From an uncultured Eubacteriales bacterium (GTDB lineage: Bacteria > Bacillota > Clostridia > TANB77 > RGIG9151), in assembly GCA_964631135.1 (NCBI GenBank), contig CAZVVZ010000001.1, positions 1 through 50,066 on the forward strand: a stretch of DNA of 50,066 bases, written 5' to 3'. Made by a program: the position numbers and the translations under genes. Position 1 is the stretch's first letter, and each line of letters begins with the position of its first letter. This document shows positions 1 to 20,962 of this stretch, one piece after another. The notes under the pieces were generated by a model that was not told where the DNA came from, did no database searches, and was given only the letters and a program-made list of their open reading frames with translations.

Positions 1-11
1 TTTACATTGAT

Positions 12-3859: not shown

Positions 3860-3895
3860 AACGGTGAACTTTGTAAGGCCACTAAAAAAGCCTTC

Positions 3896-4036
3896 GCAAA
3901 TAAAAAATAGCACAGATGTCATATAGTTTAACGTTGCTCAGAATTCACGGCGGAAACCCTTATCATATGCTATAGGGTGGTTTTCTGTGAATATTCGCAT
4001 CTTTTTAAACTATATGACATCTGTGTTATTTTTTGC
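3896..4036 (+). repeat. T2 long-hairpin repeat, copy 1 (forward); weaker palindromic flanks extend to about 3866-4063
   Basis: atagcacagatgtcatatagtttaacgttgctcagaattcacggcggaaaccc ... gggtggttttctgtgaatattcgcatctttttaaactatatgacatctgtgttat. It is about 90% identical to the reverse complement of 20763-20887. It lies between convergent genes. Confidence 0.85.
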
Positions 4037-4063
4037 AAAAACTTTTTCAACTGCTTCACAAAG

Positions 4064-5032
4064 TTAAACTTTTTTCTTAAATGCAAATAATTTTAATAAT
4101 AAAAAAGTAACGGGTATTCCGAATATTGCAGCTAAGCAGTATACCAGTAATTTTTCCCAGCCTAAAATATTATAAAAAAGTATTACAAATCCGTTTTGTA
4201 TTAAAAAGTTTGGTATATATGAAATACAAAATTTCACAAATTTTTTTAATGATAAATTTTCCTTAAAAGTTAGAAAACTATTAAGTAAGTATGCGATAGA
4301 AAGGCTTGTTAAGTACCCTACAATAAAAGCTAGATTTACATTTTTTATTATTAGAGAATAGAGATAAGCAAAACCAATACCGTTTATTGTATTTATGACT
4401 CCAATTATTAAAAACATAATAAATTGCAATGAGAGGAATGTCTTTTTTAGTTTAGTAAATAATGAAGGTTTATATGTATCCCACCCTATTAACTTTTCTT
4501 TCTGAACGATATAGGCATTTTTTGCAATGTTTTTAAGTGGTGTGTCAGATAACGAATCTGAGTAAAAAGTGTCTATGGTTTCTTTTGGAAACACATTATA
4601 AAATCTTTTAACTTTTTCCTCACCATAGCAGTTTTCACCTGTGTATTTTCCGGTTTCTTTATCTACAACTGAAGCCATAAGCTTTTGAATTTTTAATTCC
4701 AAACAAATTGGTTCAAGTAAAAATTCCGGAGATGCCGAGATTACTATGTCACTATCAAAATGAGAACTTTTATACCATTTTTTTATCTTGTGTTTGTTTT
4801 TTTTCCAAAAATCTTTTATGTAACTGTCAATATTATTTATTCCGCTAAATACCTCAAAAAATTTCTCTTTAAATTGAGTTTTGGTTAAAAAGCCAAAAAG
4901 GTATTTTGTAAAAGCCCATGCTTGTTTAGGGAGAAACTTTAATAGGGAAGGTTGCCTTTTTATGCAGTAAAAATAGAAGTCTACTGTGCTATCTCCGTCA
5001 TATATTGTTTTATCAAAATCGTATACGTTCAT
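4064..5032 (-). CDS. Fusion protein: N-terminal HAD-superfamily phosphatase domain plus C-terminal GtrA-like 4-TM domain
   Basis: 322-aa ORF. The N-terminus MNVYDFDKTIYDGDS carries the HAD DxDxT motif. The C-terminal ~130 aa contain four hydrophobic helices with GtrA-like spacing (FIMFLIIGVINT...FLLLKLFAFKK). Confidence 0.6.
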   Translation of the reverse strand: MNVYDFDKTIYDGDSTVDFYFYCIKRQPSLLKFLPKQAWAFTKYLFGFLTKTQFKEKFFEVFSGINNIDSYIKDFWKKNKHKIKKWYKSSHFDSDIVISASPEFLLEPICLELKIQKLMASVVDKETGKYTGENCYGEEKVKRFYNVFPKETIDTFYSDSLSDTPLKNIAKNAYIVQKEKLIGWDTYKPSLFTKLKKTFLSLQFIMFLIIGVINTINGIGFAYLYSLIIKNVNLAFIVGYLTSLSIAYLLNSFLTFKENLSLKKFVKFCISYIPNFLIQNGFVILFYNILGWEKLLVYCLAAIFGIPVTFLLLKLFAFKKKV

Positions 5033-5109
5033 AGTTCTTCCTCCTACTATAATAGATACTAAAATATTTTATCATAAGTTTAGTTTGTTATTCAATGATT
5101 TTGTTGGAA

Positions 5110-5300
5110 GTTACTAGTCGGGCTATTAGTGTTTAAACTGTTACTATATGTAAATAAAATATATGTTTTAAAAGGAACGAATATTTGCAGAAAGACTTCC
5201 TCTAATTTTTTTGAAGTCTTTCGTCGCAAATCCTGAGTTCCGATAAAACATATATTTTATTTACATATAGTAACAGTTTAAACACTAACAGTCAGACTAC
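5110..5300 (-). repeat. T1 long-hairpin repeat, copy B, reverse orientation
   Basis: Perfect inverted repeat 5127-5287 (tagtgtttaaactgttactatatgtaaataaaatatatgtttta / reverse complement) around the T1 core in reverse orientation. Degenerate outer termini are gttactagtcgggct (left) and cagtcagactac (right). Confidence 0.9.
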
Positions 5301-5344
5301 CCTTAAAAGTAAAACATATATGTTATTTTCTAGGTAGTCTGACT
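5290..5344. repeat. Internally deleted T1-like mini-hairpin abutting copy B
   Basis: A 12-bp stem agtcagactacc / ggtagtctgact, made of T1 terminal sequence, encloses a 31-nt loop that retains aaaacatatatgtt. Confidence 0.6.
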
Positions 5345-5448
5345 AGCGATTTTTTGAATAATAGCATTATTTTTAATATTGACAATATTAAAAATTTGAG
5401 GTATTGTAATAATTGAATTATAACACTTATATATAGAAGGGATGAAAA

Positions 5449-6153
5449 ATGGAACCTATTATAGAAGTTAAAGATGTTACTAAAGTATATAAAGTGGGCA
5501 GTGAGCGAATAGTAGCACTTGACAAAGTAAATTTAACAATAAATAAAGGCGAATTTTGTTGCTTGCTGGGAACTTCAGGTTCCGGTAAATCTACTTTGCT
5601 TAATGTCATGGCAGGAATAGAAAAAATTACATCAGGTGAGATTATTATAAGAAACAGAAAAATAAATAAAATGAGCGAAAGAGAATTATCTATATTTCGT
5701 CAAAAGTACTTAGGCTTTATTTTTCAATCTTATAATTTAATAGCTTCACTTACTGCTTTTGAAAATGTTGAATTACCACTCATTTTTAAAGAAGTTTTGC
5801 CTAAAAAGCGGAAGAAGATGGTTCGCGATATAATAAAAGCAGTTGGGCTTTCAGGCAGAGCAAAACATAAACCGTCTCAGATGAGCGGAGGGCAACAGCA
5901 AAGAGTAGGTATCGCAAGAGCATTTGTAAGTTCACCGGAGATTGTGTTTGCAGATGAGCCAACCGGGAATCTGGACACTAAAACGACCATGGAAATAATG
6001 GGGTTAATAAAAGGAATTGCTAAAGAATATAATCAGACAATAGTTATGGTTACACATGACCCGAGAATTGCAGAATTTGCAGATAAAGTAATTAACATTC
6101 ATGATGGACATATAAAAAGTGTAGAAGAGAAAGAAAGTATTCAAAATATATAA
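5449..6153 (+). CDS. ABC transporter ATP-binding protein (MacB/LolD-like)
   Basis: Walker A GTSGSGKST, signature MSGGQQQR, Walker B IVFADEPT, H-loop VTHD. Confidence 0.9.
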   Translation: MEPIIEVKDVTKVYKVGSERIVALDKVNLTINKGEFCCLLGTSGSGKSTLLNVMAGIEKITSGEIIIRNRKINKMSERELSIFRQKYLGFIFQSYNLIASLTAFENVELPLIFKEVLPKKRKKMVRDIIKAVGLSGRAKHKPSQMSGGQQQRVGIARAFVSSPEIVFADEPTGNLDTKTTMEIMGLIKGIAKEYNQTIVMVTHDPRIAEFADKVINIHDGHIKSVEEKESIQNI

Positions 6154-6176
6154 TTGTAATCTTGGAGGAGATTTAA

Positions 6177-7835
6177 ATGAAAAAGTTTTTATTGGTTTTA
6201 TGTGCAGTTTTAATGATAATATCAACAAGCTTCAGCTTTGCAGAGGAATATGAAGCAGAGTATCCAAAGATAATTTTTGAAAATAAAACAGAAGTTATGA
6301 AAGTAAAGGCAGGAGAAAACTTTGACTTTAAACTTACTATAAAAAATGTGGGCGATGAAGGTGCAAGATACATAACTATTGCAAATGCGGATAAAGAAGC
6401 TCCAATATACTGGGAAACAGCTGTTGATACATATACGATTTATAGGATGAGCGTAGGCGGAAAAAAAGAAATAACCATAAGCTTGAGAGTAAAAGAGACA
6501 GCAGATGTCGGAACATATGCTCTTCCTTTTGATATTACTTATTCAAATTCAAGCGGTACAGAATATTCAAATAAGCAAACAATATATTTTGAAGTTGTTA
6601 AAGAGTATTCAAAGCCTTTAATTTTAGTTAGAAATGTAAAAACAAATCCGGAAGAGGTTACAGCGGATTCTGAAAACAAATTATCTTTTGAAATATATAA
6701 TAACGGCGATTTAGATGCAAGAAGAGTAAAGCTTACATTAAAAGGTTTATCTAAAGACGGATTTATGATAAAAGACTTTATAGATAACAGATATTTTGAC
6801 AATCTTGACGGAAAGGAAAGTAAAAGGGTAAATTTTGACTTATTGGTTTCAGAAAATATTCCGAAAGGCACAAACTCGTTAGATGTTGAATTACAATACT
6901 TTGATCAGGATAATAAAGAATATACAGACACAAAAACAATTTATATAAATAATGTGCAAGGAACTACAAGTGAATCCGGTAAGGGTGTTCCAAAGATAAT
7001 TGTAAGTTCATATGATGTCAGCCCTAGTACAGTTACTGCCGGAAGTACAGTAGCTTTCCAGTTTACATTAAAGAATACACATACTGAAAAATCAATAAAA
7101 AATATGAAGGCTGTAGTTGGCTCGGAGGATGGAACATTTACATTAGAAGGCGGAAGCAACTCATTTTATGTTAGTGAGTTAAAACCGCAAGAAGAAATCA
7201 CAAAGACTTTTTACTTAAGAGCTAAGGCTGATGCTTTATCTCGTGCTTACCCGGTATCTATTGACTTTGATTATGAAGATGCAGATGAGGAAGTGCATAC
7301 TTCTACTGAAAAAATAAATATTCCTGTTGTTGAAAAGACGGAACTTTCTATTGATAATATAAATGGCCCGTATGAGATGTACGTTGGAAATACAGGATAT
7401 ATTTCATTTGAATATTACAATAAGGGAAAAGCAACCATTTCTAATTTATCTGTTACAGTTGAAGGCGACTATTCTTCTGTAAATTCAACTAACTATATTG
7501 GTAACATTGAAGCCGGCAGCGGAAGCTATTCTGAAATAGAGGTAAGAGCGGACGTTGAAGGGCAAGCAAAAGGAACTTTAATATTTTCCTATGAAGATTC
7601 AGTCGGAAATGTAAAAACCTTAGAAAGATCTATAGAAGGACTGGTATATGGTGACGTGCCTGCTTCTGATACGGATTCAGAAATTGATATACCATTTCCG
7701 GAAGAGCAGGAAAAAGAGCATATGGAATGGTGGAAATTGTTACTTATAGGCTTAGGTTCGTTTGCTGTTACTTTGCTTATTGTGAGATTTATTACTATAA
7801 AAGTAATGATGAGAAAGCTAGAAGATGAAATATAA
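6177..7835 (+). CDS. Secreted beta-rich repeat-domain protein with C-terminal membrane anchor (COG1361/CARDB-like by resemblance)
   Basis: 552 aa with a signal peptide MKKFLLVLCAVLMIISTSFSFA. There are about four ~110-aa segments of similar composition (…V..G…F.F.L.N.G…). The C-terminal TM segment WWKLLLIGLGSFAVTLLIV is followed by basic residues. Confidence 0.55.
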   Translation: MKKFLLVLCAVLMIISTSFSFAEEYEAEYPKIIFENKTEVMKVKAGENFDFKLTIKNVGDEGARYITIANADKEAPIYWETAVDTYTIYRMSVGGKKEITISLRVKETADVGTYALPFDITYSNSSGTEYSNKQTIYFEVVKEYSKPLILVRNVKTNPEEVTADSENKLSFEIYNNGDLDARRVKLTLKGLSKDGFMIKDFIDNRYFDNLDGKESKRVNFDLLVSENIPKGTNSLDVELQYFDQDNKEYTDTKTIYINNVQGTTSESGKGVPKIIVSSYDVSPSTVTAGSTVAFQFTLKNTHTEKSIKNMKAVVGSEDGTFTLEGGSNSFYVSELKPQEEITKTFYLRAKADALSRAYPVSIDFDYEDADEEVHTSTEKINIPVVEKTELSIDNINGPYEMYVGNTGYISFEYYNKGKATISNLSVTVEGDYSSVNSTNYIGNIEAGSGSYSEIEVRADVEGQAKGTLIFSYEDSVGNVKTLERSIEGLVYGDVPASDTDSEIDIPFPEEQEKEHMEWWKLLLIGLGSFAVTLLIVRFITIKVMMRKLEDEI

Positions 7836-7885
7836 AAAGCAAAAAGATATATGATAATATTATGATGACATAGGGGGCGAGGAAT

Positions 7886-8017
7886 ATGGATATGACGACT
7901 TCAACCGGGACTGAATTGGATTGGCTTTTAATAGGAGTTATTGCAGGTAGTGTTATTTTAGGAATTGTTGTTGGAATTTTACTTGGAAGAAAGGCAATGA
8001 AGAAGAGAGATATTTAA
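7886..8017 (+). CDS. Small single-pass membrane protein (43 aa), absent from the ORF track
   Basis: atg at 7886 preceded by gggggcgagg. It translates to MDMTTSTGTELDWLLIGVIAGSVILGIVVGILLGRKAMKKRDI, one TM helix plus a basic tail. It fills the gap between two co-oriented genes. Confidence 0.4.
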   Translation: MDMTTSTGTELDWLLIGVIAGSVILGIVVGILLGRKAMKKRDI

Positions 8018-8031
8018 TTGGCGGTGAAAAT

Positions 8032-9327
8032 ATGAGAAGTAAGGATTTTATAAAAATGGGTCTAAAAAATCTTACTCGTAGAAAACTTAGAACATCGCTA
8101 ACGGTATTAGGAGTAGTAATAGGTACTTTCTCTATTGTTGTAATGATGTCTTTAGGAATAGCTATGAGTAGCGGATTTGAAGAGCAAATAATGCAAATGG
8201 GAAGTTTGACGACTATAAATGTAAACAAATATTATAGTGCCGATACCGGAAATAGTGATGAATGGACACCTTATAAAGAAAAAGAATTAGACGATAATTT
8301 AATTACTAAATTAAAAGCAATTCCTCATGTTAAGGCAGTTACACCTATTCAGTACATGAGTGTAGAACTTATTTCCGGTAAATATGAGTCATGGTCAACT
8401 CTTTGTGGGATAGATCCAAGTGCATTTGATTATTTTGACTTTCCTGAGCTTGAGGAAGGAAGATATTTAACTTCCGATGACACCGATGAACTTCTTTATT
8501 CTGCAAATTCTACATACTTTTATAATCCAAAAGGTTCCAGCATGAGAAGTGATGGCGATGAGTTGGTTGATATTATGGAAGACAGAGTAAAGATGACGTT
8601 TAACTCGGGAGATGATACTAAAACTAAGTATTATACAGCTAAGTTTGTGGGTAAGATGACTGAAAGCAGCGGAGATAAAGACGGATACTTATATGTTAAT
8701 ATAGAGCAACTTAAGAAGTGGAAAAAAGAGTTAAAAAAAGCCGGAATAAAGACATATGATGACGATGGGTATTCTCAAATTTGGGTATCGGTTGATGATG
8801 TCGATAATGTTGAAGAAGTACAAGATCAGATAAAAGCCATGGAATATGGAACATATAGCTTAATAGATATGGTAAAGCCTATGCAAGAAACGTCTAATAC
8901 TTTACAGCTTATTTTAGGTGGAATCGGTGCAATTTCTATGTTAGTTTCGGCAATAGGCATTGCTAATACTATGGTAATGTCAATATATGAAAGGACAAAA
9001 GAAATTGGTGTTATGAAGGTACTGGGGTGCCTTATTTCGGACATTAAAAAGCTATTCCTATTTGAAGCCAGTATGATAGGGCTCATTGGAGGAGCTTTAG
9101 GTGTTGGACTAAGTTATTTAGCTTCTTACTTTATGAATAAATATTCTAATCAAATTGGAGAAGCTTTAGGTATAGGCAGTAGCGGAAGCAAAATTTCTAT
9201 TATTCCGGCATGGCTGGTATTGCTAGCTTTAGGCTTTGCAATGCTGGTTGGAATTATTTCAGGATATTATCCTGCAAAAAGAGCAACAAAGATAAAGGCA
9301 ATAGAGGCTTTAAGAGAGTCAAATTAA
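8032..9327 (+). CDS. ABC transporter permease, FtsX/MacB family with large extracytoplasmic domain
   Basis: 431 aa. An N-terminal TM helix is followed by a ~250-aa loop and three C-terminal TM helices. Motifs include ERTKEIGVMKVLG and YYPAKRATKIKAIEALR. Confidence 0.85.
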   Translation: MRSKDFIKMGLKNLTRRKLRTSLTVLGVVIGTFSIVVMMSLGIAMSSGFEEQIMQMGSLTTINVNKYYSADTGNSDEWTPYKEKELDDNLITKLKAIPHVKAVTPIQYMSVELISGKYESWSTLCGIDPSAFDYFDFPELEEGRYLTSDDTDELLYSANSTYFYNPKGSSMRSDGDELVDIMEDRVKMTFNSGDDTKTKYYTAKFVGKMTESSGDKDGYLYVNIEQLKKWKKELKKAGIKTYDDDGYSQIWVSVDDVDNVEEVQDQIKAMEYGTYSLIDMVKPMQETSNTLQLILGGIGAISMLVSAIGIANTMVMSIYERTKEIGVMKVLGCLISDIKKLFLFEASMIGLIGGALGVGLSYLASYFMNKYSNQIGEALGIGSSGSKISIIPAWLVLLALGFAMLVGIISGYYPAKRATKIKAIEALRESN

Positions 9328-9347
9328 AAAGTTTGCATTATGCTAAA

Positions 9348-9596
9348 TTTTTAATGTAATAGAAAATTTCTACAAAAAAGCGAATAAAACGAGCAATAAA
9401 ATGGGTTATAAAAAGCTCTCCTAAATAGACGTTCAGATTGCTGTAAAAAAGTACTATATATGTTTTATCAGAACTCAGGATTTGCGACGGAAGACTTTAA
9501 AAAAATATGGGAAGTCTTTCGGCAAATATTCGTTCCTTTTAAAACATATATAGTACTTTTTTACAGCTACCAAAAAAGATACCTTAATATTTTGAC
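9348..9596 (+). repeat. M3 repeated module, copy X, interrupted by T1 copy C
   Basis: The 5' part tttttaatgtaatagaaaatttctacaaaaaagcga...gagcaataaaa and the 3' part taccaaaaaagataccttaatattttg match 18548-18621 and 46881-46972. Confidence 0.6.
9440..9567 (+). repeat. T1 long-hairpin repeat, copy C, forward
   Basis: gctgtaaaaaagtactatatatgttttatcagaactcaggatttgcgacggaagactt ... aagtctttcggcaaatattcgttccttttaaaacatatatagtacttttttacagc. This is a 128-bp foldback with copy-specific outer arms. Confidence 0.9.
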
Positions 9597-9619
9597 GTGG
9601 ACAAAGTCCACATTTTTTT
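9597..9619 (+). terminator. Rho-independent terminator candidate
   Basis: gtggac-aaa-gtccac followed by attttttt, downstream of the ABC permease and upstream of the marR promoter. Confidence 0.55.
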
Positions 9620-9625
9620 AACCCA

Positions 9626-9654
9626 TTGACAAACGTTTTCTTATGTGATAATGT
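9626..9654 (+). promoter_or_regulatory. Candidate sigma-A promoter of the fab operon (TTGACA-N17-TGaTAATGT)
   Basis: Perfect -35 ttgaca at 9626-9631, 17-nt spacer, extended -10 tgataatgt. Confidence 0.55.
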
Positions 9655-9708
9655 AATTTAAAGTTAAAATAGTTTTAATATCAAACATTTCAGAAAGGAG
9701 TGTAAAAA

Positions 9709-10170
9709 TTGACTGAGCAGCAGCAAGAGAAGTTAAATGATTTTTTTGTTGGAGTATTTAATCAGATTTTAGCTTGGGAAGGACAGACAATAAGAAATAT
9801 CGGAGTTCAGGATTTATCAATTCGTGAACTTCATGTTATAGAAGCTGTATCAGACCTTTATAAGGTTGAAAAAAATACTATGGCCAATATTGCAAAACAT
9901 ATTTCTGTATCACGTGGAGCATTATCTGTTTCTGTAAATGGTTTGGTAAATAAAGGGTACTTGGAGAGAAGTTACACAGAAAAAGATAGAAGAGTTATTT
10001 ATATAAACGTTACAGAAAAGGGCAGAAAAGTAAATGAAATTCACGAAGCTTTTCACTATGAAATGGTAAAATCTATAGGTGAGCAGTTAGATGATGAGCA
10101 GTTAAAAACACTATTATTGGCATTAGATAAACTAAAAGAATTTTTTAAAGGAAAAATTACTCAGAATTAA
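9709..10170 (+). CDS. MarR-family transcriptional regulator heading the fab operon (FabT-like by position)
   Basis: 153 aa. TTG start 7 nt after gaaaggag. Winged-HTH region TMANIAKHISVSRGALSVSVNGLVNKGYLER. It sits immediately upstream of the fab genes. Confidence 0.75.
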   Translation: MTEQQQEKLNDFFVGVFNQILAWEGQTIRNIGVQDLSIRELHVIEAVSDLYKVEKNTMANIAKHISVSRGALSVSVNGLVNKGYLERSYTEKDRRVIYINVTEKGRKVNEIHEAFHYEMVKSIGEQLDDEQLKTLLLALDKLKEFFKGKITQN

Positions 10171-10272
10171 ATTAACTTTTGTAATGCAAAAGCAGGTAAA
10201 ACGACTTGTACTTTAGTTAAGTGCATAGAAGAGAATAAGTAGAAGCACTTTCAATTCAAAGAGGGGAAAAAT

Positions 10273-11928
10273 ATGGAGACATTATACAAAAAGTTTTGTA
10301 AAGAAAAATTTGATGAAAAAGGGGAATTGATAGATTTTGAAATAAACTGCCCATCAAATTTTAATTTTGCTTATGATGTAGTGGATAGTTTAGGAAAAAA
10401 TTACCCCGATAAAATTGCTTTAAGATGGTGTAATGTTATGGGCGAGAAAAAAGATATTACATTTAAAGAAATTATGGATTTATCCAATAAAGCAGCTAAC
10501 TTCTTTATTTCAGAGGGGATAAAAAAAGGCGATAAAGTAATGCTTATGCTAAAAAGGCATTATGAATACTGGTATGTTCTTTTGGCATTACACAAAATAG
10601 GCGCTGTAGCAATTCCGGCAACACATATGCTTACATATAAAGACATTGTATACAGAGTAGAATCTGCAGATGTTAAAGCTATTGTTTGCACTTCTGAAAA
10701 TGACGTACATAATTTTATACTGGCTGCTAAGGACCACTGCGAATCGTTAGAGAAGCTATATAATGTAAGAAAGGACTTGCCGGGATTTATAAGATTAGAT
10801 AAGGAAATTGAAAAATGCAGTGATAAATTAAAAAGAATAGAAAATTCATCTGAGGATCCGTTTTTAATGTATTTTACTTCGGGAACAACAGGGTATCCGA
10901 AAGGTGTAATACATAATTATTCTTATCCGTTAGCTCATATTATTACAGCAGTTTATTGGCAGAATGTCCAAAATAATGGTTTACATCTTACCGTTGCAGA
11001 TACAGGTTGGGCAAAAGCTTCATGGGGAAAGATATATGGTCAGTGGTTAGCCGGCTCAGCTGTAATGGTATACGACTTTGATAAATTTATACCGAAGGAT
11101 TTACTTGGAATTATTGAGAAATATAAAGTTACTACTTTTTGTGCACCTCCTACAATATATAGATTTTTAGTTAAAGAAGAGTTAGATAAATATGATTTAT
11201 CATCTCTAAAGTATGCTACAAGTGCAGGGGAAGCAGTTAATCCGGAAATACTTAAAAATTTTAAAGAACATACAGGTCTTACAATAATGGAAGGATTTGG
11301 TCAGACGGAATCTACATTGATTATTGCCAATTTAAAAGGACAAAAAACCAAACTTGGTTCTATTGGACGTCCAACTCCGCTATATGATGTTAAAATTGTT
11401 GATGATGACGGAAATGAATCGGATTATGGCGAAATAGTTGTTGTACCGAGAAAAGACAGAAAACAGTATGGAATTTTTTGCAAATATAATAAAGATGATG
11501 AACTATATAAGGAAGTATGGAAAAACGGTGTGTACCACACAAAAGATATTGCGAGACGTGATGAAGATGGGTACTTTTGGTACGAAGGAAGAAAAGACGA
11601 CATAATAAAATCCAGTGGATATAGAATAGGACCTTTTGAAGTTGAAAATGTTCTGATGCAACATAAAAGTGTATTGGAATGTGCAGTTACGGGGGTACCT
11701 GATGCTATAAGAGGGACGGTCGTTAAAGCTACTGTAGTGCTTGCAAATAAATATTTACCGACTCCTGAGTTGGCAAAAGAATTACAGGAATTTGTGAAAA
11801 AAAACACAGCACCTTATAAGTATCCAAGAGTAGTTGAATTTGTAAGTGAATTGCCAAAAACGATAAGCGGCAAAACTAAAAGGATTGATATAAAAAACAA
11901 TTTACACAATCCTATAGTGCATGTATAG
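10273..11928 (+). CDS. AMP-dependent acyl-CoA/acyl-ACP synthetase (medium-chain acyl-CoA synthetase-like)
   Basis: 551 aa. AMP-binding motif YFTSGTTGYPKGV, plus EGFGQTE, GYFWYEGRKDDIIKSSGYRIGPFEVE and the C-terminal PKTISGKTKR lysine motif. Confidence 0.85.
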   Translation: METLYKKFCKEKFDEKGELIDFEINCPSNFNFAYDVVDSLGKNYPDKIALRWCNVMGEKKDITFKEIMDLSNKAANFFISEGIKKGDKVMLMLKRHYEYWYVLLALHKIGAVAIPATHMLTYKDIVYRVESADVKAIVCTSENDVHNFILAAKDHCESLEKLYNVRKDLPGFIRLDKEIEKCSDKLKRIENSSEDPFLMYFTSGTTGYPKGVIHNYSYPLAHIITAVYWQNVQNNGLHLTVADTGWAKASWGKIYGQWLAGSAVMVYDFDKFIPKDLLGIIEKYKVTTFCAPPTIYRFLVKEELDKYDLSSLKYATSAGEAVNPEILKNFKEHTGLTIMEGFGQTESTLIIANLKGQKTKLGSIGRPTPLYDVKIVDDDGNESDYGEIVVVPRKDRKQYGIFCKYNKDDELYKEVWKNGVYHTKDIARRDEDGYFWYEGRKDDIIKSSGYRIGPFEVENVLMQHKSVLECAVTGVPDAIRGTVVKATVVLANKYLPTPELAKELQEFVKKNTAPYKYPRVVEFVSELPKTISGKTKRIDIKNNLHNPIVHV

Positions 11929-11950
11929 AGTTGAAAGAGAGGGGAGATTG

Positions 11951-12910: not shown

Positions 12911-12921
12911 GAGGTAATTTT

Positions 12922-13869
12922 ATGGTAAAAACTAAAATTTGTGAATTATTAGACATTGAATATCCGATTTTTCAAGGAGGAATGGCATGGATTGCTGATG
13001 CGGATTTAGCTGCTGCAGTGTCAAATGCCGGCGGACTTGGAATAATATCTGCAATGAATGCTAATGCAGAATGGCTAAAAAGTCAGATTGATAAAGCAAG
13101 ATCATTAACTGATAAGCCATTTGGTGTAAATATTATGCTTATGAGTCCATTTGCTGATGAAGTTGCACAATTAGTCGCAGATGAAAAGATAAAGGTTGTT
13201 ACGACGGGTGCAGGTGATCCTTCAAAATATATGGACATGTGGAATAAAGCAGGAGTAAAAGTTATTCCGGTTGTTGCATCTGTTGCTCTTGCAAAACTTG
13301 CTGAGAGAAACGGTGCGGTTGCTGTTATTGCCGAAGGAGGAGAATCAGGTGGACATATTGGCGAACTTTCCACTATGACATTAGTTCCTCAAGTAAAGGA
13401 TGCAGTTACTATTCCTGTAATTGCAGCCGGCGGAATTGGAGACGGAAGAGGTGTTGCGGCAGCATTTATGCTGGGAGCAGAAGGAGTACAGCTTGGTACA
13501 AGGTTTTTGGTTGCGACAGAATGCAATGTTCACCCAAATTATAAGAAAAAAATAATTGCAGCAAAAGATAGAGATACAATTACAACAGGAAAGCGACTAG
13601 GCCATCCTGTACGTTCTCTTAAAAACCCATATTCAAGAGAATTCTTTAAGAAAGAATATGATACAACTATTTCTAATGAAGAATTGGAGCTGTTTGGCAG
13701 AGGGTCTTTAAGAAGAGCGGCAGTAGACGGAGATGAAAAAACAGGATGCTTTTTAGCAGGTCAGATTGCTGCCATGGTTAAAAAAGAACAACCTGCAAAA
13801 GAAATAATTGAAGAAATATTCAGTGAAGCAGATGAAATACTGGGTGGTGCAGGCAAATGGGTAAAATAG
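12922..13869 (+). CDS. fabK: Enoyl-ACP reductase II (FMN-dependent, nitronate monooxygenase fold)
   Basis: 315 aa with IFQGGMAWI, GGESGGHIG and IAAGGIGDGRG. It lies between fabH and fabD. Confidence 0.85.
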   Translation: MVKTKICELLDIEYPIFQGGMAWIADADLAAAVSNAGGLGIISAMNANAEWLKSQIDKARSLTDKPFGVNIMLMSPFADEVAQLVADEKIKVVTTGAGDPSKYMDMWNKAGVKVIPVVASVALAKLAERNGAVAVIAEGGESGGHIGELSTMTLVPQVKDAVTIPVIAAGGIGDGRGVAAAFMLGAEGVQLGTRFLVATECNVHPNYKKKIIAAKDRDTITTGKRLGHPVRSLKNPYSREFFKKEYDTTISNEELELFGRGSLRRAAVDGDEKTGCFLAGQIAAMVKKEQPAKEIIEEIFSEADEILGGAGKWVK

Positions 13870-14786
13870 CTTTTGTATTTCCGGGTCAAGGCACACAATA
13901 TACCGGAATGGGAAAAGATATATATGAAAACAATTTAGTAGCAAGAGATGTTTTTAATCAGATAGAAGAAGTAAGACCCAACACAATAAAACAGTGCTTT
14001 GAAAGTGATATTTCGGAACTGTCGATAACAGAGAATACCCAGCCTTGTATTTTTGCAGTAGAAATGTCATTAGCTTGTGCATTAAAATCAGCAGGAATAG
14101 AGCCTGATTGCTTGGCCGGTTTTTCTTTAGGAGAGGTAACAGCATTAACTTTTTCTAATATTCTGTCTTTTAATGATGGAATAAAGTTTATATGTAAAAG
14201 GGCAGAGTATATGCAGTCAGCTATTAAGAAGATTGATACGGGAATGATAGCTGTAATGAAACTAGATAATAAAACAGTTGAGGATATTGCTGAAAAGTTT
14301 ACTTCCGTTTTTCCTGTAAATTATAATTGCCCGGGGCAGTTGGTTGTTGCAGGGGATAAATCCCAGCTTGAAGACTTTTCAAAGGCTATAGATGAAAAAG
14401 GCGGAAAGTCTGTATTATTAAAAGTAAGTGGCGGATTTCATTCTCCGTTCATGGAAGAAGCATCTAACAAGATTTTAGAGGAATTAAATAATATTAAATT
14501 TAATTTGCCAAAATACCAAGTTTATTCAAACTATACTTCCAAGGTATATACAGATGATGTAAAAACACTTTTAGCTATGCAGGTTAAAAAACCGGTGCTG
14601 TGGGAGAACACAATCAATAATATGATAGATGACGGAGTTGACACATTTATAGAAGTAGGGCCGGGCAAAGTTTTATCCGGGTTAATTAAAAAAATAAACA
14701 AAGAGGTTAATTTATACAACGTTGAGGATAATATTACATTAAAAAGCGTTGTTGACCGTTTAGGTACATTAAATAGGGAGGGCTGA
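13857..14786 (+). CDS. fabD: Malonyl-CoA:ACP transacylase
   Basis: FVFPGQGTQY and GFSLGE active-site serine motif, plus GGFHSPFM. It overlaps the fabK end by 13 nt. Confidence 0.9.
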   Translation: MGKIAFVFPGQGTQYTGMGKDIYENNLVARDVFNQIEEVRPNTIKQCFESDISELSITENTQPCIFAVEMSLACALKSAGIEPDCLAGFSLGEVTALTFSNILSFNDGIKFICKRAEYMQSAIKKIDTGMIAVMKLDNKTVEDIAEKFTSVFPVNYNCPGQLVVAGDKSQLEDFSKAIDEKGGKSVLLKVSGGFHSPFMEEASNKILEELNNIKFNLPKYQVYSNYTSKVYTDDVKTLLAMQVKKPVLWENTINNMIDDGVDTFIEVGPGKVLSGLIKKINKEVNLYNVEDNITLKSVVDRLGTLNREG

Positions 14787-14788
14787 TA

Positions 14789-15529
14789 ATGCTAAAAGAA
14801 AGAGTAGCTATTATAACAGGTGCATCACGAGGGATAGGCAGAGCTATTGCATTGGAGATGGCTCAAAACGGAGCAAACGTTGCAATAATATATGCCGGAA
14901 ATAAAGATAAAGCTGAAGAGGCTAAAAAAGCCGCAGAAGAATTTGGAGTAAGAGCCGGTATATATAAATGTGATGTTGCGAATTTTGAAGAGGTAACAGA
15001 ATGTGTTAAAAATATAGTAAATGATTTCGGCAAGGTTGATATACTAGTAAATAATGCCGGAGTTACAAAAGATTCTTTGGTTTTGTCAATGAACGAAAGT
15101 GATTTTTCGTTAGTTGTTGATACCAATCTAAAGGGAGCTTTTAACATGATTAAGCAGGTATATCCTTTATTTATGAAACAAAGAAAAGGAAGAATTATCA
15201 ATATTTCTTCAGTTTCCGGACTTACAGGAAATGCCGGCCAGGCTAATTATTCTGCTTCAAAAGCTGGAATTGTGGGCCTTACAAAAACAGTTGCGAAAGA
15301 ACTTGCAGCAAGAGGAGTTACTTGTAATGCCATTGCACCGGGATTTATAGAAACAGATATGACAGATAAGTTATCGGATAAGGTAAAAGAAGCAGCAGTT
15401 TCAGCTATACCTATGAAAAAAATGGGAAAGCCTAGTGATATAGCACATATGGCCACATTCCTGGCGAGTGACAATGCAGGATATATAACCGGTGAAGTAA
15501 TTCGTGTTGACGGTGGAATTGCTATGTAA
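14789..15529 (+). CDS. fabG: 3-oxoacyl-ACP reductase
   Basis: SDR motifs TGASRGIG, NNAG and YSASKAG. 246 aa. Confidence 0.9.
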   Translation: MLKERVAIITGASRGIGRAIALEMAQNGANVAIIYAGNKDKAEEAKKAAEEFGVRAGIYKCDVANFEEVTECVKNIVNDFGKVDILVNNAGVTKDSLVLSMNESDFSLVVDTNLKGAFNMIKQVYPLFMKQRKGRIINISSVSGLTGNAGQANYSASKAGIVGLTKTVAKELAARGVTCNAIAPGFIETDMTDKLSDKVKEAAVSAIPMKKMGKPSDIAHMATFLASDNAGYITGEVIRVDGGIAM

Positions 15530-15541
15530 TTTGTAAAGGAG

Positions 15542-16780
15542 ATGAAAAATTTGAATCGAGTTGTTGTTACGGGTTTGGGAGCAATTACTCCTATAGGGAA
15601 TAATGTTACTGATTTTTGGGCCGGACTTGTTTCCGGTAAATGCGGAATAGATTATATTACAAAATGTGATACGACAGACTTAAAAGTTAAAGTAGCAGCG
15701 GAAGTAAAAAATTTTGAACCAAGTGAATATATAGAGAAAAATTTAATTAGAAAAACAGATATGTTTACTCAGTATGCTTTAGCTGCAACAGCACAAGCAG
15801 TTAGTGATGCTAACCTTAAAGACTATAATCCGGAAGATTTAGCCGTATATTATGGCTCCGGCATTGGTGGCCTATCTACTTTTATGAAAAATTATGAGAA
15901 ATTTTTAGAAGGTGGCTCAAAAAAAGTATCTCCGTTTATGATTCCTATGATGATTTCTAATATTGCCGGCGGCAATATTGCTATAAAATATAATGCGCAG
16001 GGACCTTGTGTTACCGTAGTGTCAGCTTGTGCTACAGGAACTAATAGCATAGGTGAAGCCTATCGTGCAATTAAAGACGGATATATAAAGGCTGCGATAG
16101 CCGGAGGAGCTGAAGCAACAATTCAGCCTGTAAACATTTCGGGTTTCGCAAATTGCATGGCATTATCTACCAGAAATATACCTGATGAAGCATCTATTCC
16201 TTTTGACAAGAGAAGAGATGGATTTGTTATGGGAGAAGGTGCAGGTACGGTTATTCTAGAAGAATATGAATATGCAAAAGCAAGAGGAGCTAAGATTTAT
16301 GCGGAAATTGTGGGATATGGCAATACTTGTGATGCATATCATATGACAGCACCGGAGCCTAATGGAACGGGTGCGGCAAATTCTATAAAAATGGCGATTA
16401 AAGATTTAAATATAACTGATGATACAAAGATATATATAAATGCTCACGGAACAAGTACTCCGCTTAATGACAAAACAGAAACAAAAGCCATAAAGAAAGT
16501 ATTTGGCGAAAGAGCTAATTCGATTATGATAAGCTCTACAAAATCTATGACAGGCCATATGTTGGGTGCAGCAGGTGCTGTTGAAGCTATAGTTTGTATA
16601 AAGGCATTAAATGAGTCTATTGTACCACCTACAATTGGGTATAAGGAGAAAGACCCTGAATGTGATTTAGACTATGTACCGAATGTTGCAAGGAAAAGTA
16701 AAGTTGACTTAGCACTTTCTACTTCTTTAGGATTTGGCGGACATAACGGCTGTTTAGCATTTGTAAAGGAGGTTAGGTAG
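15542..16780 (+). CDS. fabF: 3-oxoacyl-ACP synthase II
   Basis: 412 aa with VVSACATG (active Cys), INAHGTSTPLND and GFGGHN. Confidence 0.9.
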   Translation: MKNLNRVVVTGLGAITPIGNNVTDFWAGLVSGKCGIDYITKCDTTDLKVKVAAEVKNFEPSEYIEKNLIRKTDMFTQYALAATAQAVSDANLKDYNPEDLAVYYGSGIGGLSTFMKNYEKFLEGGSKKVSPFMIPMMISNIAGGNIAIKYNAQGPCVTVVSACATGTNSIGEAYRAIKDGYIKAAIAGGAEATIQPVNISGFANCMALSTRNIPDEASIPFDKRRDGFVMGEGAGTVILEEYEYAKARGAKIYAEIVGYGNTCDAYHMTAPEPNGTGAANSIKMAIKDLNITDDTKIYINAHGTSTPLNDKTETKAIKKVFGERANSIMISSTKSMTGHMLGAAGAVEAIVCIKALNESIVPPTIGYKEKDPECDLDYVPNVARKSKVDLALSTSLGFGGHNGCLAFVKEVR

Positions 16781-16782
16781 AT

Positions 16783-17223
16783 ATGGAATTAAAAAAAGTA
16801 AGAGAATTAGTAAAAATAATGGAAGGTAATGACATAAGCACATTAGAACTTACTGAAGGTGATGTCAAGATTCGCCTTGAGAAAGGGAATTTAGGTCAAA
16901 TCAGCGAAACTAAGATAAATGGCAATTATGGAGTAAAAACAGGTGTACAAACTTTAGTAGCTGCAGAAAATTCAAGCAAAAAAGATAAAGGAATAGAAGT
17001 AAAATCTCCTATGGTCGGAGTATTTTATAAGTCTGCTTCTCCTACTTCCGAACCGTTTGTTAAGGTCGGGAGCAAAGTAAAAAAAGGTGATGTTTTATGC
17101 ATAATAGAGGCTATGAAGTTAATGAATGAAATTTATGCAGAGCAGGACGGTACTATATCTGAGGTTTGCTTAAATGACGGTGATGTAGCCGAGTATGCAC
17201 AAGTTTTGTTTAGAATAAACTGA
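16783..17223 (+). CDS. accB: Biotin carboxyl carrier protein of acetyl-CoA carboxylase
   Basis: 146 aa with biotinyl-lysine motif IEAMKLMNEI. Confidence 0.85.
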   Translation: MELKKVRELVKIMEGNDISTLELTEGDVKIRLEKGNLGQISETKINGNYGVKTGVQTLVAAENSSKKDKGIEVKSPMVGVFYKSASPTSEPFVKVGSKVKKGDVLCIIEAMKLMNEIYAEQDGTISEVCLNDGDVAEYAQVLFRIN

Positions 17224-17234
17224 GGTGGTGTGGT

Positions 17235-18575
17235 ATGTTTTCTAAAATTTTGGTAGCAAACAGAGGAGAAATTGCCGTTCGTATAATAAGAGCTTGTAAA
17301 GAAATGGGAATCTCTACGGTTGCTGTGTATTCTGAGGCTGACCGTGATTCAATTCATGTAAGTTTAGCTGATGAAAGTATCTGTATAGGTCCGGCTTTTG
17401 CTAAAGACAGTTACCTAAATATGTCAGCTATACTATCTGCCGGTGTTGCGACAGGAGCACAGGCTATTCATCCCGGGTATGGTTTTTTATCTGAAAGCGC
17501 AAAATTTGCAAATTTGTGTGCACAGTGTAGGATGGCTTTTATTGGACCGACTTCTGAGATTATATCTAAAATGGGCGACAAAGACGAAGCAAGAAGGACA
17601 ATAAAGAAAGCAGGAGTACCTGTTATTCCCGGTACGGATATAATAAATGACGTTAAAGAAGGCAAAAAATTAGCAAAGGAAATAGGCTATCCTATTTTAA
17701 TTAAGGCTCGTGCCGGCGGCGGCGGTAAAGGTATTAGGCTTGTTAACAGTGATGCAGAATTTGATAATGCATTTTCAGAGGCGACTACCGAAGCTTCAAA
17801 AGCTTTTGGCGACGGAGCTGTATATATTGAGAAGTATCTTTTTCCGGTAAAGCATATAGAGATGCAGATTTTGGCGGACAGTTTTGGAAATGTTGTTTGT
17901 TTGGGAGAAAGAGACTGCTCAATGCAAAGAAAAAATCAGAAAGTTTTGGAAGAAAGTCCATCAATATTTATAGACGATTCTATTAGAAAAAATATGATAG
18001 AAGCTACTAAAAAAGCAGTAAAAGCTGTTAAATATACTAATGCCGGTACGGTAGAGTTTTTAATGGACAGTGATAAGAACTTTTATTTTATGGAAATGAA
18101 TACAAGACTTCAGGTTGAACATACTGTCACAGAAATGCTTACAGGAATAGATATTGTTAAATGGCAGATTAGAATTGCGGCCGGTATACCGATTGATTTC
18201 AAACAGGAAAAAGTTCAGCTGAAAGGTTCTGCGATAGAGTGCAGAATAAATGCAGAAAATCCGAATAAAGGCTTTACACCAAACTCCGGTAAGGTTACGC
18301 TTTTACATATCCCCGGAGGGCCGAAGGTTCGTTTTGACAGTGCATTATATCAGGATTATACTGTCCCTCCGTTTTACGATTCTATGATTGGAAAACTTAT
18401 TGTTTATGCACCGACACGTGAAGAAAGCATAAGAAAAATGAAAGCGGCATTATGTGAGCTTATAATTGAAGGGCTTGATACTAATATCAATTTCCTTATG
18501 GATATTTTGGATGAAGAAGAGTTTAAAAAAGGGACTTATACAACTAATTTTTTGTGTAATAGAAAATTCCTCTGA
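17235..18575 (+). CDS. accC: Biotin carboxylase
   Basis: 446 aa with KILVANRGEIAVRIIRA, ATP-grasp GGGGKGIR and EMNTRLQVEH. The last ~6 codons and the stop lie inside repeat module M3. Confidence 0.95.
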   Translation: MFSKILVANRGEIAVRIIRACKEMGISTVAVYSEADRDSIHVSLADESICIGPAFAKDSYLNMSAILSAGVATGAQAIHPGYGFLSESAKFANLCAQCRMAFIGPTSEIISKMGDKDEARRTIKKAGVPVIPGTDIINDVKEGKKLAKEIGYPILIKARAGGGGKGIRLVNSDAEFDNAFSEATTEASKAFGDGAVYIEKYLFPVKHIEMQILADSFGNVVCLGERDCSMQRKNQKVLEESPSIFIDDSIRKNMIEATKKAVKAVKYTNAGTVEFLMDSDKNFYFMEMNTRLQVEHTVTEMLTGIDIVKWQIRIAAGIPIDFKQEKVQLKGSAIECRINAENPNKGFTPNSGKVTLLHIPGGPKVRFDSALYQDYTVPPFYDSMIGKLIVYAPTREESIRKMKAALCELIIEGLDTNINFLMDILDEEEFKKGTYTTNFLCNRKFL

Positions 18576-18621
18576 AAAAGCGAGCAATAAAAAAGATTTT
18601 TATTACCAAGAAAGATACCTT
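18548..18621 (+). repeat. M3 repeated module, copy Y (uninterrupted), spanning the accC 3' end and the accC-accD spacer
   Basis: ttttttgtgtaatagaaaattcctctgaaaaagcgagcaataaaaaagatttttattaccaagaaagatacctt aligns block-wise with 9348-9401 plus 9568-9585, and with 46881-46905. Confidence 0.6.
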
Positions 18622-18650
18622 CTGAAAAACTTAAATAAAGGAGAGTAGTC

Positions 18651-19514
18651 ATGTTAAATAAATTACTTTTTAAGAAGCCGAAGAATAAATTGGAAACATA
18701 CGGAAAGTTGGCTAAGATTGCTAATCCTGATGTGCCTGAAGATATGTGCATTGTGTGTCCTTCCTGCCAGCAACAGGTTTTTTCCAGTGATGTGACGGAT
18801 AATTTAAATGTTTGTCCTAATTGCAGACATCATTTTAGAATAAATGCAAGGCAGAGGTTGAATATTATTTGTGATACTGACTCTTTTATTGAGCATGATA
18901 AAGACATGATAACCGATAAAGGGCTAGATTTTCCGGGATATAACAAAAAATTAAATCAGGCCCAACTTGAGAGTGCGGAAAAAGAAGCTGTTATATGCGG
19001 TGAGGCGACCATTAGTAATATAAAATGTGCAATTTTTGTTATGGATCCATATTTTATGATGGGGAGTATGGGAACTGTAGTGGGTGAAAAAATCACAAGA
19101 CTGTTTGAGTATGCGACTGAAAATAGTTTGCCGGTTATCGGATATACTGTTTCCGGAGGAGCTAGAATGCAAGAAGGAATTTTATCATTGATGCAAATGG
19201 CTAAAGTTTCCGGTGCTGTAAAAAAACATAGTGATTCAGGTAATTTATATATTACAGTATTAACAGATCCTACGACAGGTGGGGTTACTGCAAGCTTTGC
19301 TATGGAGGGAGATATTATTTTATCTGAGCCTCAAGCTTTAATTGGCTTTGCAGGGCCTAGAGTTATCGAGCAGACTATAAGACAGAAATTGCCTGTCGGC
19401 TTTCAAAGAGCAGAGTTCCTGCTTAATAAAGGATTTGTTGACTTGATTGTGGAAAGAAAAAAGCAAAAAGAACTTCTTTCTAAACTATTATATATGCATA
19501 GAAAGGAGAAATAA
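18651..19514 (+). CDS. accD: Acetyl-CoA carboxylase carboxyltransferase beta subunit
   Basis: Zinc-ribbon CPSCQQ...CPNCRHH at the N-terminus, then the carboxyltransferase domain (GGARMQEG). Confidence 0.9.
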
Positions 19515-19516
19515 CA

Positions 19517-20284
19517 ATGACAGCATATGAAAAGGTTTGCATGGCAAGAGCTAAAGGCCGTCCTACATCTATGAGCTATATAAAAAATATTTTTGATGAT
19601 TTTATTGAGATGCATGGAGATAGAAGATTTGGCGATGATAAAGCAATTGTCGCAGGAATAGCGACGTTAAATAATAAGCCGGTGACTGTTATAGGAATTG
19701 AAAAAGGTGAAAATACAAAAGAGAGAATAGAAAGAAATTTTGGTTCTTCTCATCCGGAAGGCTATAGAAAAGCTTTAAGGCAAATGAAACTTGCAGAAAA
19801 ATTTAACAGACCGATTATTTGCTTTGTAGATACTTCGGGGGCTTATTGTGGCATTGAGGCTGAAGAACGTGGTCAAGGGCAGGCTATTGCGGAAAATTTA
19901 ATGGAGATGATGACATTAAAAGTTCCTATTATTTCTGTATTTGTTGGTGAAGGCGGAAGCGGAGGAGCGCTTGCTTTAGCTGTTGCGGATGAAGTTTGGA
20001 TGCTTGAAAATTCCGTTTATTCCGTTATTTCTCCGGAAGGCTGTGCCAGCATACTGTGGAAAGATTCTGCGAAAGTAAAAGAAGCTTCCGAATGCTTAAA
20101 ACTAACTTCAGATGATTTGCTCGCTAATAAAGTTGTTGAGAAAAAAATAAATGAAAATTCCGGTAAGTTTGAAGAAGTATATAACATTTTAAAGGATAAT
20201 ATGGTAGATACTTTAGAAAAACTGGAAAGCTTAAGCAAAGAAGAACTGATTGATAACAGATATAAGAGATTTAGAAAGTTTTAG
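19517..20284 (+). CDS. accA: Acetyl-CoA carboxylase carboxyltransferase alpha subunit
   Basis: 255 aa with [26 protein letters not shown] and [10 protein letters not shown]. Confidence 0.9.
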
Positions 20285-20294
20285 GAGGTTAAGT

Positions 20295-20708
20295 ATGAAT
20301 AAAGATGAATTGAAAAAAATTTTACCGCATAGAGAGCCGATGCTACTTGTTGAAGAAGCAGAAAAAATTGATGAAAATAAAGCTATTGGGAAATATAAGG
20401 TAAAAGGTGACGAATGGTTTTTGCAAGGGCATTTCCCGGGAAATCCTGTTGTGCCGGGAGTTGTGCTTTGCGAGATGATGGCACAGGCTTGCTGTGTGAT
20501 ACTTGCAGATAAAGTAAGCGGTGCAACACCGTATTTTACAGGACTTAATAATGTTAAATTTAAAAATAAGGTCTTGCCGGGGGATGAGCTAATTACTGAA
20601 TGTGAGATTACTAAATCTAAACACCCTTTTTACTTTGCCACAGCTAAAGGGAGTGTCAATGGAAAACTTTCGGTTTGTGCGGATTTTTCATTTGCATTGA
20701 TAAAATAA
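20295..20708 (+). CDS. fabZ: 3-hydroxyacyl-ACP dehydratase
   Basis: The start is taken at MNKDEL, 5 nt after aggagg. It carries the hot-dog motif HFPGNPVVPGV. The stop codon lies inside the 12-bp direct repeat flanking T2 copy 2. Confidence 0.9.
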   Translation: MNKDELKKILPHREPMLLVEEAEKIDENKAIGKYKVKGDEWFLQGHFPGNPVVPGVVLCEMMAQACCVILADKVSGATPYFTGLNNVKFKNKVLPGDELITECEITKSKHPFYFATAKGSVNGKLSVCADFSFALIK

Positions 20709-20713
20709 AGTCT

Positions 20714-20936
20714 CTATTCAGGGAAAAAGGGGTTGAAAAAAACTCTTCCCTAAATAATAAAACATAGCACAGAGCTCATATAGTTTAAAAGATGCGAATA
20801 TTCACAGGAAACCATCCTATAGCATAGGATAAGAGGTTTCCGTCGTGAATCCTGAGCAACGTTAAACTATATGAGCTCTGTGCTATGTTTTATTATTTAG
20901 GGAAGAGTTTTTTTCAACCCCTTTTTCCCTGAATAG
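20714..20936 (-). repeat. T2 long-hairpin repeat, copy 2 (reverse), a 223-bp foldback flanked by a 12-bp direct repeat; possible MITE insertion
   Basis: ctattcagggaaaaaggggttgaaaaaaactcttccctaaataataaaacatagcacagagctcatatagtttaa ... and its reverse complement form the arms. gataaaataaag occurs at 20699-20710 and again at 20938-20949. Confidence 0.85.
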
Positions 20937-20962
20937 GGATAAAATAAAGATTTAGTTTATAT

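Follow-up and report, generated by a model that had tools for sequence, protein, structure and literature searches.

Two foldbacks between convergent genes

The window analysed here is a stretch of 50,066 nucleotides (nt), positions 1 to 50,066 of the forward strand of contig CAZVVZ010000001.1 (assembly GCA_964631135.1), from an uncultured Eubacteriales bacterium. It has a GC content of ~33% and a strong excess of G on the + strand, and it carries housekeeping genes only, with no transposase. An earlier note on this DNA proposed that two sequences in it, each lying between convergent genes, are copies of a foldback family, T2, that is separate from another family, T1. Both copies were found, W1 at 3902-4034 (+) and W2 at 20711-20939 (-), and the foldback common to them measures 133 nt. 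W1 lies between an alpha/beta-hydrolase gene (2951-3859, +) and a HAD-IB / GtrA-like gene that converges on it (4064-5032, -); W2 lies between fabZ (20250-20708, +), whose stop is 2 nt ahead of it, and the converging gene rmuC (20963-22135, -).

Each copy consists of two complementary arms held 73 nt apart by a centre. In W1, whose sense strand is the + strand and reads CTCAGA..AATATTCG, arms of 30 nt (3902-3931 and 4005-4034; 97% complementary) enclose a centre at 3932-4004. In W2, which has its sense on the - strand, the arms are 78 nt long (20711-20788 and 20862-20939; 99% complementary) and the centre occupies 20789-20861. The copies are 88.9% identical across 133-134 nt, or 90.5% in the centre alone. 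A stem difference that the earlier note had described as mirrored in both arms was verified, with cagatgtcat/atgacatctg in W1 and cagagctcat/atgagctctg in W2. Folding z-scores relative to shuffled sequence were -9.6 for W1 and -22.4 for W2. A diagnostic T2 pattern matched twice in the window against a chance expectation of 0.00, and the covariance model R1 scored W1 at 84 bits and W2 at 104 bits. W1 is an older copy, with a degraded apical hairpin and a centre that folds weakly (z -1.8, compared with -6.5 for the centre of W2).

Perfect long outer arms had been claimed for both copies, a description that fits W2 only. There the arm is built of layers, in the order CTATTCAGGG, A5, GGGGTTG, A7, CTCTTCCC, TAAATAATAAAACATAGCACAG, AGC and TCATATAGTTTAA. 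In W1, the 30 pairs give way to a decayed, mismatched stem that extends to approximately 3863-4069. At this full extent (3863-4069, +), which includes a G+C stem, A6 and a patch GCCTTCGC / GCAAAAAC..., W1 occupies the entire spacer, from 4 nt past the stop of the hydrolase gene to the stop of the gene at 4064-5032. W2 is flanked by a 12-nt direct repeat, GATAAAATAAAG, with its left unit at 20699-20710 (+), including the fabZ stop codon, and its right unit at 20938-20949 (+); this sequence has two matches in the window against 0.07 expected from shuffling. A search for strain polymorphism at W1 turned up only identical or truncated contigs.

The T2 family and its relatives

T2 is a real, lineage-restricted, previously undescribed dispersed non-coding foldback family, and its separation from T1 is supported. 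The two window copies are not simply the products of one recent duplication: nine more short copies and three long variants, termed T2L, were found across three related lineages of uncultured Clostridia. The family thus comprises 11 short and three long copies at differing loci in at least three lineages, with lengths of 133-257 nt and no open reading frame (ORF). Apart from six copies that came from a pattern scan, those beyond the window were reached by walking outward from RmuC homologues and by motif and R1 scans, with R1 scores of 84-107 bits for family copies. Six copies lie in one species-representative metagenome-assembled genome (MAG), CAZXFU01, labelled “uncultured Eubacteriales bacterium” (loci L002-L007); they were detected with a pattern spanning both conserved half-sites with a gap of 25-55, which T2L-type copies would escape. 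Locus L015 (GCA_964316295.1) carries two short copies and all three T2L. The rmuC-linked T2 of L015 is present also in L021, from a Hadza gut assembly, and a partial copy stands at the start of L026. Copies within a genome are closer to each other than copies from different genomes. The metagenome contigs L001 (end, 11174-11273), L022 (end) and L026 (start and end) stop inside T2; short-read assemblies are broken by the palindromes, and copy numbers in MAGs are therefore undercounts.

The carriers of T2 form a narrow clade of uncultured gut and rumen Clostridia. In keeping with the novelty of the family, no known element was matched. Rfam gave no match in the window at the gathering score and none for T2L; at a permissive threshold it gave only generic long-hairpin matches to plant microRNA models, far under their cut-offs. 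Blastn of T2 against plasmids, phages and E. coli found no match, nor did scans of viral contigs with four patterns for T2, T1 and T2L. A scan of JGI metagenomes with an invariant 19-mer returned two chance matches, neither in a T2 context.

The earlier note regarded the outer arms as unrelated between copies. This was refuted once further copies could be aligned as one architecture: in ten or more copies the arms follow one common plan, which runs from a G+C stem (GGGGCTGT-like) through A6-8, a 6-9-nt patch rich in G+C, (T)AAATA..AGCA and a 3-6-nt patch to TCATAT(A)(G)TTTAA. Expressed as blocks, the plan is an A-run, a G+C-rich patch, AAATAGCA, a variable patch and then CATATAGTTTAA (TCATATAGTTTAA after the 3-6-nt patch). 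The arms have an A-run on one side with a T-run on the opposite side, and in nine of ten short copies A6-8 / T6-8 bracket the G+C-rich patch. W1 and the L026 copy have ~55 nt of outer arm in common, including the patch CAGATGTC, though their loci and species differ. The outer right arm of W1 recurs in L026 nearly base for base, suggesting that the spreading unit carries arms of ~55-60 nt. Past that distance the extensions are copy-specific, and they produce arms of up to 93 nt with five A-run layers in the copy at L015 2590-2846.

While the arms vary, the centre is conserved; mean pairwise identity between T2 copies is 87.5% in the centre and 52% in the outer arms, measured on the outermost 20 nt of each. 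The centre, ~73 nt, is an imperfect hairpin of four helices and an apical hairpin (ATCCTAY..RTAGGAT) with unequal internal loops between them. P1 pairs GTTTAA with TTAAAC, P3 pairs ATTCAC with GTGAAT, and P4 pairs GGAARNC with GNYTTCC; P2 lies between the loops that adjoin P1 and P3. The P1-P2 loop places ACG ((A/T)CG across copies) opposite CTTT, the P2-P3 loop places TCAGG opposite ATTC, and the P3-P4 bulge places GAC opposite T. In the T2L variants (L015 538-778, 17567-17805 and 19486-19766), which came from the motif and covariance-model scan, ~90 nt comprising two extra hairpins are added at the GAC bulge to give a predicted four-way junction; their arms resemble those of the copies in MAG CAZXFU01.

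It is through the centre that T2 aligns to T1, with seven copies in the window, and to a third foldback, T3 (L010 11168-11301). The T1 copies lie at 10-172 (+), 5115-5299 (-), 9438-9569 (+), 22907-23073 (+, arms decayed, 81%), 32598-32750 (-), 36180-36288 (+) and 46707-46884 (+). In the joint alignment of the three families, 95.9% of cells are paired compared with 37-48% in slid controls, although the structure was derived from the same sequences and the slid controls flatter it somewhat. Eleven of 23 centre pairs are changed on both sides, as in ATTCAC/GTGAAT of T2 and ATTTGC/GCAAAT of T1, and the loop sequences are invariant. Helices in common and invariant loops indicate that T1 and T2 are diverged relatives rather than independent inventions. 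By this alignment T2 is homologous to T1, with four helices and invariant asymmetric loops in common. The asymmetry of the centre and its loops have been kept across T1, T2 and T3 even though template switching primed at P3 or P2 would erase them, which argues for a strand-specific asymmetric structure under purifying selection. CGTCG is conserved on the antisense strand at an internal bulge of T1 and T2, with CTTAG in T3; its position is not terminal. Adjoining the T1 copy at 5115-5299, window positions 5290-5344 hold a diverged second T1 right arm and a small extra hairpin (AGTCAGACTACC.../...GGTAGTCTGACT).

Origin of the arms and movement of the element

Evidence that the arms are re-copied at the DNA level came from the rmuC loci of L015 and L021. 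RmuC is 99% identical between them, and the two assemblies stay identical across rmuC, the left arm and all of the centre, as far as TTAAACTATATG. Past TTAAACTATATG, the right arm of L021 reads as the left arm and left flank in reverse complement; it reaches 16 nt into rmuC (AACAGAAGAGAATTAG, encoding ..T E E N stop) and then meets a DUF2238 gene at a T-run. The rmuC coding end is native, since in relatives that lack T2 the gene finishes with the homologous ..GCAGAAGAATAA. An artefact of fold-back assembly is unlikely because the L021 arms (element 1220-1484) differ by three bases and the length of one A-run, and the contig runs on into a bona fide gene. What lies to the right of the element differs between L021 (1220-1484) and L015 (11100-11400), with DUF2238 in the former and an flhB flagellar export operon in the latter.

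A second case comes from L006, where the palindrome at 6704-6916 spans the last 25 nt of hisS. The C terminus of HisS, ..EILEIIKE, is conserved in homologues of 85-96% identity (..EILKIIK, ..EILEVLK), such that the opposite arm must be an inverted copy. The gene converging on hisS, of 209 amino acids, now terminates inside that arm. The T2 palindromes of L002 and L007 likewise overlap coding ends.

The pattern of change in the arms is in line with these cases. Among arm pairs, 13 are changed on both sides and two on one side only, with swaps of CG to GC and AU to UA and with three G.U cells. Counted across every T1 and T2 arm, Watson-Crick pairing holds at 752 positions and fails at 27, and it is near-pure over as much as 93 base pairs (bp). 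Earlier work has shown that replication template switching both homogenises inverted repeats and expands them, and that it can yield “compensatory” changes in one step (PMC8794818, PMC8604942, PMC13100816). The inverted coding-end copies in L021 and L006 indicate that the T2 arms are made, repaired and lengthened by fold-back template switching of this kind. The earlier note's implied view of the paired arm changes as covariation for a selected RNA stem is therefore unsupported, given the near-pure Watson-Crick pairing, the double and transversion swaps, the scarcity of G.U pairs and the inverted coding ends. Judged from the sequences, the paired changes are real but mutational, and uninformative on RNA-stem selection.

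On balance, T2 is probably a foldback repeat and a sister of T1, made of an asymmetric centre, family arms of ~50-60 nt and locus-specific extensions, with arms copied by fold-back at the DNA level and a putative terminator role. In the proposed mechanism, a nascent strand would copy the centre and the invariant 12-nt inner arm, and would then snap back on its own left arm (CATATAGTTTAA / TTAAACTATATG), with the asymmetric centre forming the loop of the snap-back. The strand would next copy its other arm and continue outward into unique flank, before rejoining the template at a short homology such as a T-run. Such a process would be expected to leave perfect arms, to alter several bases at once in mirror fashion, and to extend arms into the stop codons and coding ends of neighbouring genes. 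The centre may be read as a single strand by some protein, either a mobilising enzyme or a host factor, or it may keep the palindrome tolerable; besides such an enzyme or a host protein, the fold of the transcript itself is a candidate reader of the structure. A different source for the outer arms, insertion into the loop of a pre-existing terminator, would suit the A-run/G+C-patch layer but was rejected, as the arms hold coding ends and layers common to unrelated loci.

The terminator role is suggested by position and shape. All 13 of the T2/T2L copies with mapped flanking genes start within a few bases of a stop codon, and eight of them sit between convergent genes. T2 has the form of an intrinsic terminator: it follows gene ends, and on either strand a stem with a G+C-rich base leads into a T-run. 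The same spacers in relatives hold a plain AAAAAAA-short G+C stem-TTTTTT bidirectional terminator (L013/L014, L019, L020), T3, or another foldback. The post-gene position and the A-run/stem/T-run shape together suggest that T2 acts as a giant bidirectional terminator for its flanking genes, replacing the plain terminators of relatives.

Other spacers show a similar range of occupants. In the window, the spacer between an AI-2E transporter gene and a DUF1538 gene contains a palindrome with 24-nt arms (GTTACCGTGGGAAC...) at 29572-29621; in relatives, this spacer holds T2 with 93-nt arms (L015 2590-2846), another foldback family (L010 2638-2786) or a plain terminator (L019/L020). The rmuC-DUF2238 spacer holds T3, which is T1-like with a large apical insert (L010 11168-11301, L011, L012), or a plain terminator (L013 2448-2491). 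In L015, a c-di-GMP-I riboswitch (cyclic di-GMP; 18103-18187, -; 82 bits) lies upstream of a flbD-fliL-fliM operon; the long copy T2L_b and a small terminator hairpin are located between riboswitch and flbD, and T2L_b is followed downstream by a good promoter, TTGATT-17-TATAAT.

Signs of movement came from the presence of related copies, with long arms in common, at unrelated loci in several species, and from the variable occupancy of one spacer between relatives. L006 2870-2955 (GGGGCTAT-A7-CT..TAATGTTTT..GGGGAG-T6-ACAGCCCC) has T2L-type outer arm layers around a middle of only ~18 nt, with half of the inner patch gone, and looks like an excision or deletion remnant; the orthologous spacer of L026 carries a T2 right arm (1-75). 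L010-L012 and L013-L014 were considered as a filled and an empty site. This comparison was rejected because the whole spacer differs, as do synonymous sites in the last DUF2238 codons; DUF2238 is 97% identical and rmuC 99.6%, with RmuC identical. Because these synonymous changes extend into DUF2238, the difference is attributed to homologous recombination that replaced the allele, and the pair is uninformative on insertion boundaries. A 368-amino-acid ORF between inverted T2L copies (L015 18244-19350) was also rejected as a transposase; it has no Pfam or PDB similarity, and the riboswitch/operon layout is that of an ordinary gene between occupied spacers.

Several observations weigh against the explanation by fold-back copying, movement and termination. 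Every sequence used for comparison comes from a metagenome assembly, and the divergence of L015 and L021 beyond the right side of the element could reflect either a rearrangement through T2 or a MAG chimera or misassembly at the repeat. Template switching ought to symmetrise the centre also, and selection is invoked, rather than demonstrated, as the explanation for its asymmetry. Among transition mismatches in the arms, 14 are G.T on the sense strand and five are A.C, three of the five at the fringe; this excess could be due to selection for a sense-strand hairpin, or to strand-biased mutation. Scans for promoter and terminator consensus sequences found nothing above shuffle expectation, although a simple scanner cannot score such long stems. 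The placement of T2L_b between a c-di-GMP riboswitch and the flagellar operon (flbD) is awkward for an obligate terminator, and T1 copies are found also between divergent genes; termination therefore cannot be the whole story. As to movement, no direct repeat of at least 7 nt that would mark a fixed-length target duplication was found at nine of ten T2 copies or at any of eight T1/T3 copies; only W2 has one (1/18), and its duplication could equally stem from a transposase cut or from templated insertion with re-entry upstream of the exit point. No transposase or parent autonomous element was found in the ~190 kb of loci examined.

The same data can be read as evidence for a cis-acting structured RNA, either a stability or termination element of the 3′ untranslated region or a small RNA gene, with the mirrored changes reflecting true compensatory evolution. 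The strong consensus fold with 16 of 52 pairs changed on both sides, the helices conserved across families around invariant loops, the lean of arm mismatches to sense-strand G.T (14 to 5) and the U-runs that come after the hairpin are consistent with this possibility. The sense strand also follows transcription in six of seven tandem-gene cases, a bias that is not significant. However, the arms are near-pure Watson-Crick over up to 93 bp with very few wobble pairs, and they contain inverted copies of coding ends, which selection at the RNA level would not yield. Moreover, both orientations are present (13 to 6 relative to the G-rich strand, not significant), no Rfam family is matched, T1 copies occur in promoter regions, and W1 has been retained despite its degraded apical hairpin. 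We consider this explanation unlikely.

If an enzyme moves T2, it could be one encoded elsewhere. T2 would then be a REPIN-like or IS200/IS605-like single-stranded DNA element, the centre being bound by a single-copy HUH tyrosine transposase (RAYT/TnpA-like) and the hairpin being excised and inserted at the replication fork without target duplication. The lack of target duplication in nine of ten short T2 copies tested is as expected for this model, as are a hairpin with conserved unpaired bases and a mild excess of the sense strand on the G-rich strand; the antisense-strand CGTCG at the bulge recalls the CGTC-tagged REPs, and compensatory changes are common in REPINs too (PMC3116915). The layout is nonetheless reversed relative to a REPIN, with the centre of T2 conserved and the ends variable. 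The CGTC motif is internal rather than terminal, tagged REPs are unreported in Firmicutes (PMC3733652), the orientation bias is weak, and no Y1 transposase was seen in the ~190 kb. These points make the model doubtful.

A broader proposal builds on the fold-back explanation and would make T1, T2 and T2L a new, selfish kind of “terminator palindrome” that colonises terminator hairpins, grows by replication fold-back, overwrites gene ends and seeds rearrangements. The centre would be the single-stranded recognition module of a hairpin-specific enzyme, or no enzyme would be needed. This proposal is improbable as it stands; if true, it would represent a mode of mobility and growth unlike that of DDE, HUH or recombinase-driven elements.

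Least probable is a classical MITE (a miniature transposable element with inverted repeats), derived from an insertion sequence by internal deletion, bearing conserved terminal inverted repeats and mobilised by a DDE enzyme with a fixed-length target duplication: T2 is small, non-coding, multi-copy and dispersed, with long inverted repeats, arm blocks common to unrelated loci and, at W2, a 12-nt flanking direct repeat that is significant by shuffling, but such a repeat is missing in nine of ten T2 and all T1 copies, the inner arm blocks are conserved while the outermost ends differ from copy to copy, the ~190 kb contained no parent element or transposase, and the centre, which should be least constrained in a deletion-derived MITE, is the most conserved part. 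An integron attC site, which would have R''/R' core sites (RYYYAAC / GTTRRRY), cassettes arrayed in a single orientation and intI close by, was rejected; T2 has only a partial GTTAAAC on one arm, unconserved in T1, its copies are spread through housekeeping genes in both orientations, and no integrase was found.

Fold-back copying of the arms, as favoured here, would matter in several ways. T2 would be a clean natural case in which textbook-like “compensatory” stem changes arise from mutation, by template switching, and not from selection; as such, it urges caution in RNA discovery by covariation where genomes are rich in repeats, and it gives direct support to the view that hairpins are created and maintained by template switching. 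By growing outward into coding ends, the palindromes alter the C termini of neighbouring genes, and they break metagenome assemblies and possibly synteny; these effects matter for MAG annotation of the clade. A centre that is conserved across three families with invariant asymmetric loops points to a partner or constraint worth finding. Elsewhere in the window, 40489-45560 holds four tandem flagellin paralogues of 380-424 amino acids (Flagellin_N and Flagellin_C), with conserved end regions that are 64-78% identical.

T2 among known palindromic repeats

By behaviour, T2 sits among the bacterial palindromic intergenic repeats (ERIC/IRU, REPIN, Correia, YPAL), and ERIC is nearest in plan. The ERIC/IRU sequences of enterobacteria are imperfect 127-bp non-coding intergenic palindromes with a conserved central region, co-transcribed with flanking genes, and their size variants stem from insertions at fixed internal sites; no dedicated transposase is known for them. 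T2 is similarly an imperfect palindrome of ~130 bp with a conserved centre, size variants that differ by internal insertion (T2 and T2L) and no known enzyme. There is no sequence similarity between the two (blastn, word size 11, no match in 5,426 complete E. coli genomes), and T2 differs from ERIC in its far longer near-perfect arms, its A-run/T-run layers, its flank-copied extensions and the phylum of its host.

Correia/NEMIS, RUP and YPAL are intergenic MITEs that fold into long RNA hairpins and can act as terminators or RNase targets; they have conserved termini and regular target duplications (TA or fixed length). T2 resembles them in size, intergenic location and foldback potential, but lacks both the conserved termini and the regular target duplications. 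Thus, the small, non-coding and dispersed character of a MITE is present in T2, and the conserved terminal inverted repeats and fixed target duplication are not. Bidirectional intrinsic terminators have in common with T2 the A-run, the G+C-rich stem base, the T-run, the location between convergent genes and even the spacers themselves, but the stem of T2 exceeds theirs 10-20 times in length and surrounds a centre that is structured and conserved.

In a REPIN, two REP units stand in inverted orientation, their ends conserved and the spacer between them variable (PMC3116915), and each REP unit has an unpaired GTAG or CGTC tag at one end (PMC3733652). T2 is like REPINs in forming a hairpin, in having mirrored changes on both sides, and in being vertically persistent, multi-copy and free of target duplication. 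Its plan is opposite to theirs, in that the centre is conserved (87.5%) and the ends vary (52%); no RAYT, a single-copy gene that the repeats flank in such systems, was seen at the loci examined, and the hosts are Clostridia rather than Proteobacteria or Cyanobacteria.

The homogenisation of the arms, the multi-base changes in one event and the expansion of the inverted repeat into its flank are all features of template-switch (quasipalindrome) mutation (PMC8794818; PMC8604942; PMC13100816). The arm-copying mechanism is thus known; its scale, its action on a repeat family and the overwriting of gene ends are new. Template switching has been described for short inverted repeats and the stems of RNA genes, whereas in T2 it would act on the 40-93-bp arms of a repeat family, overwriting the ends of genes.

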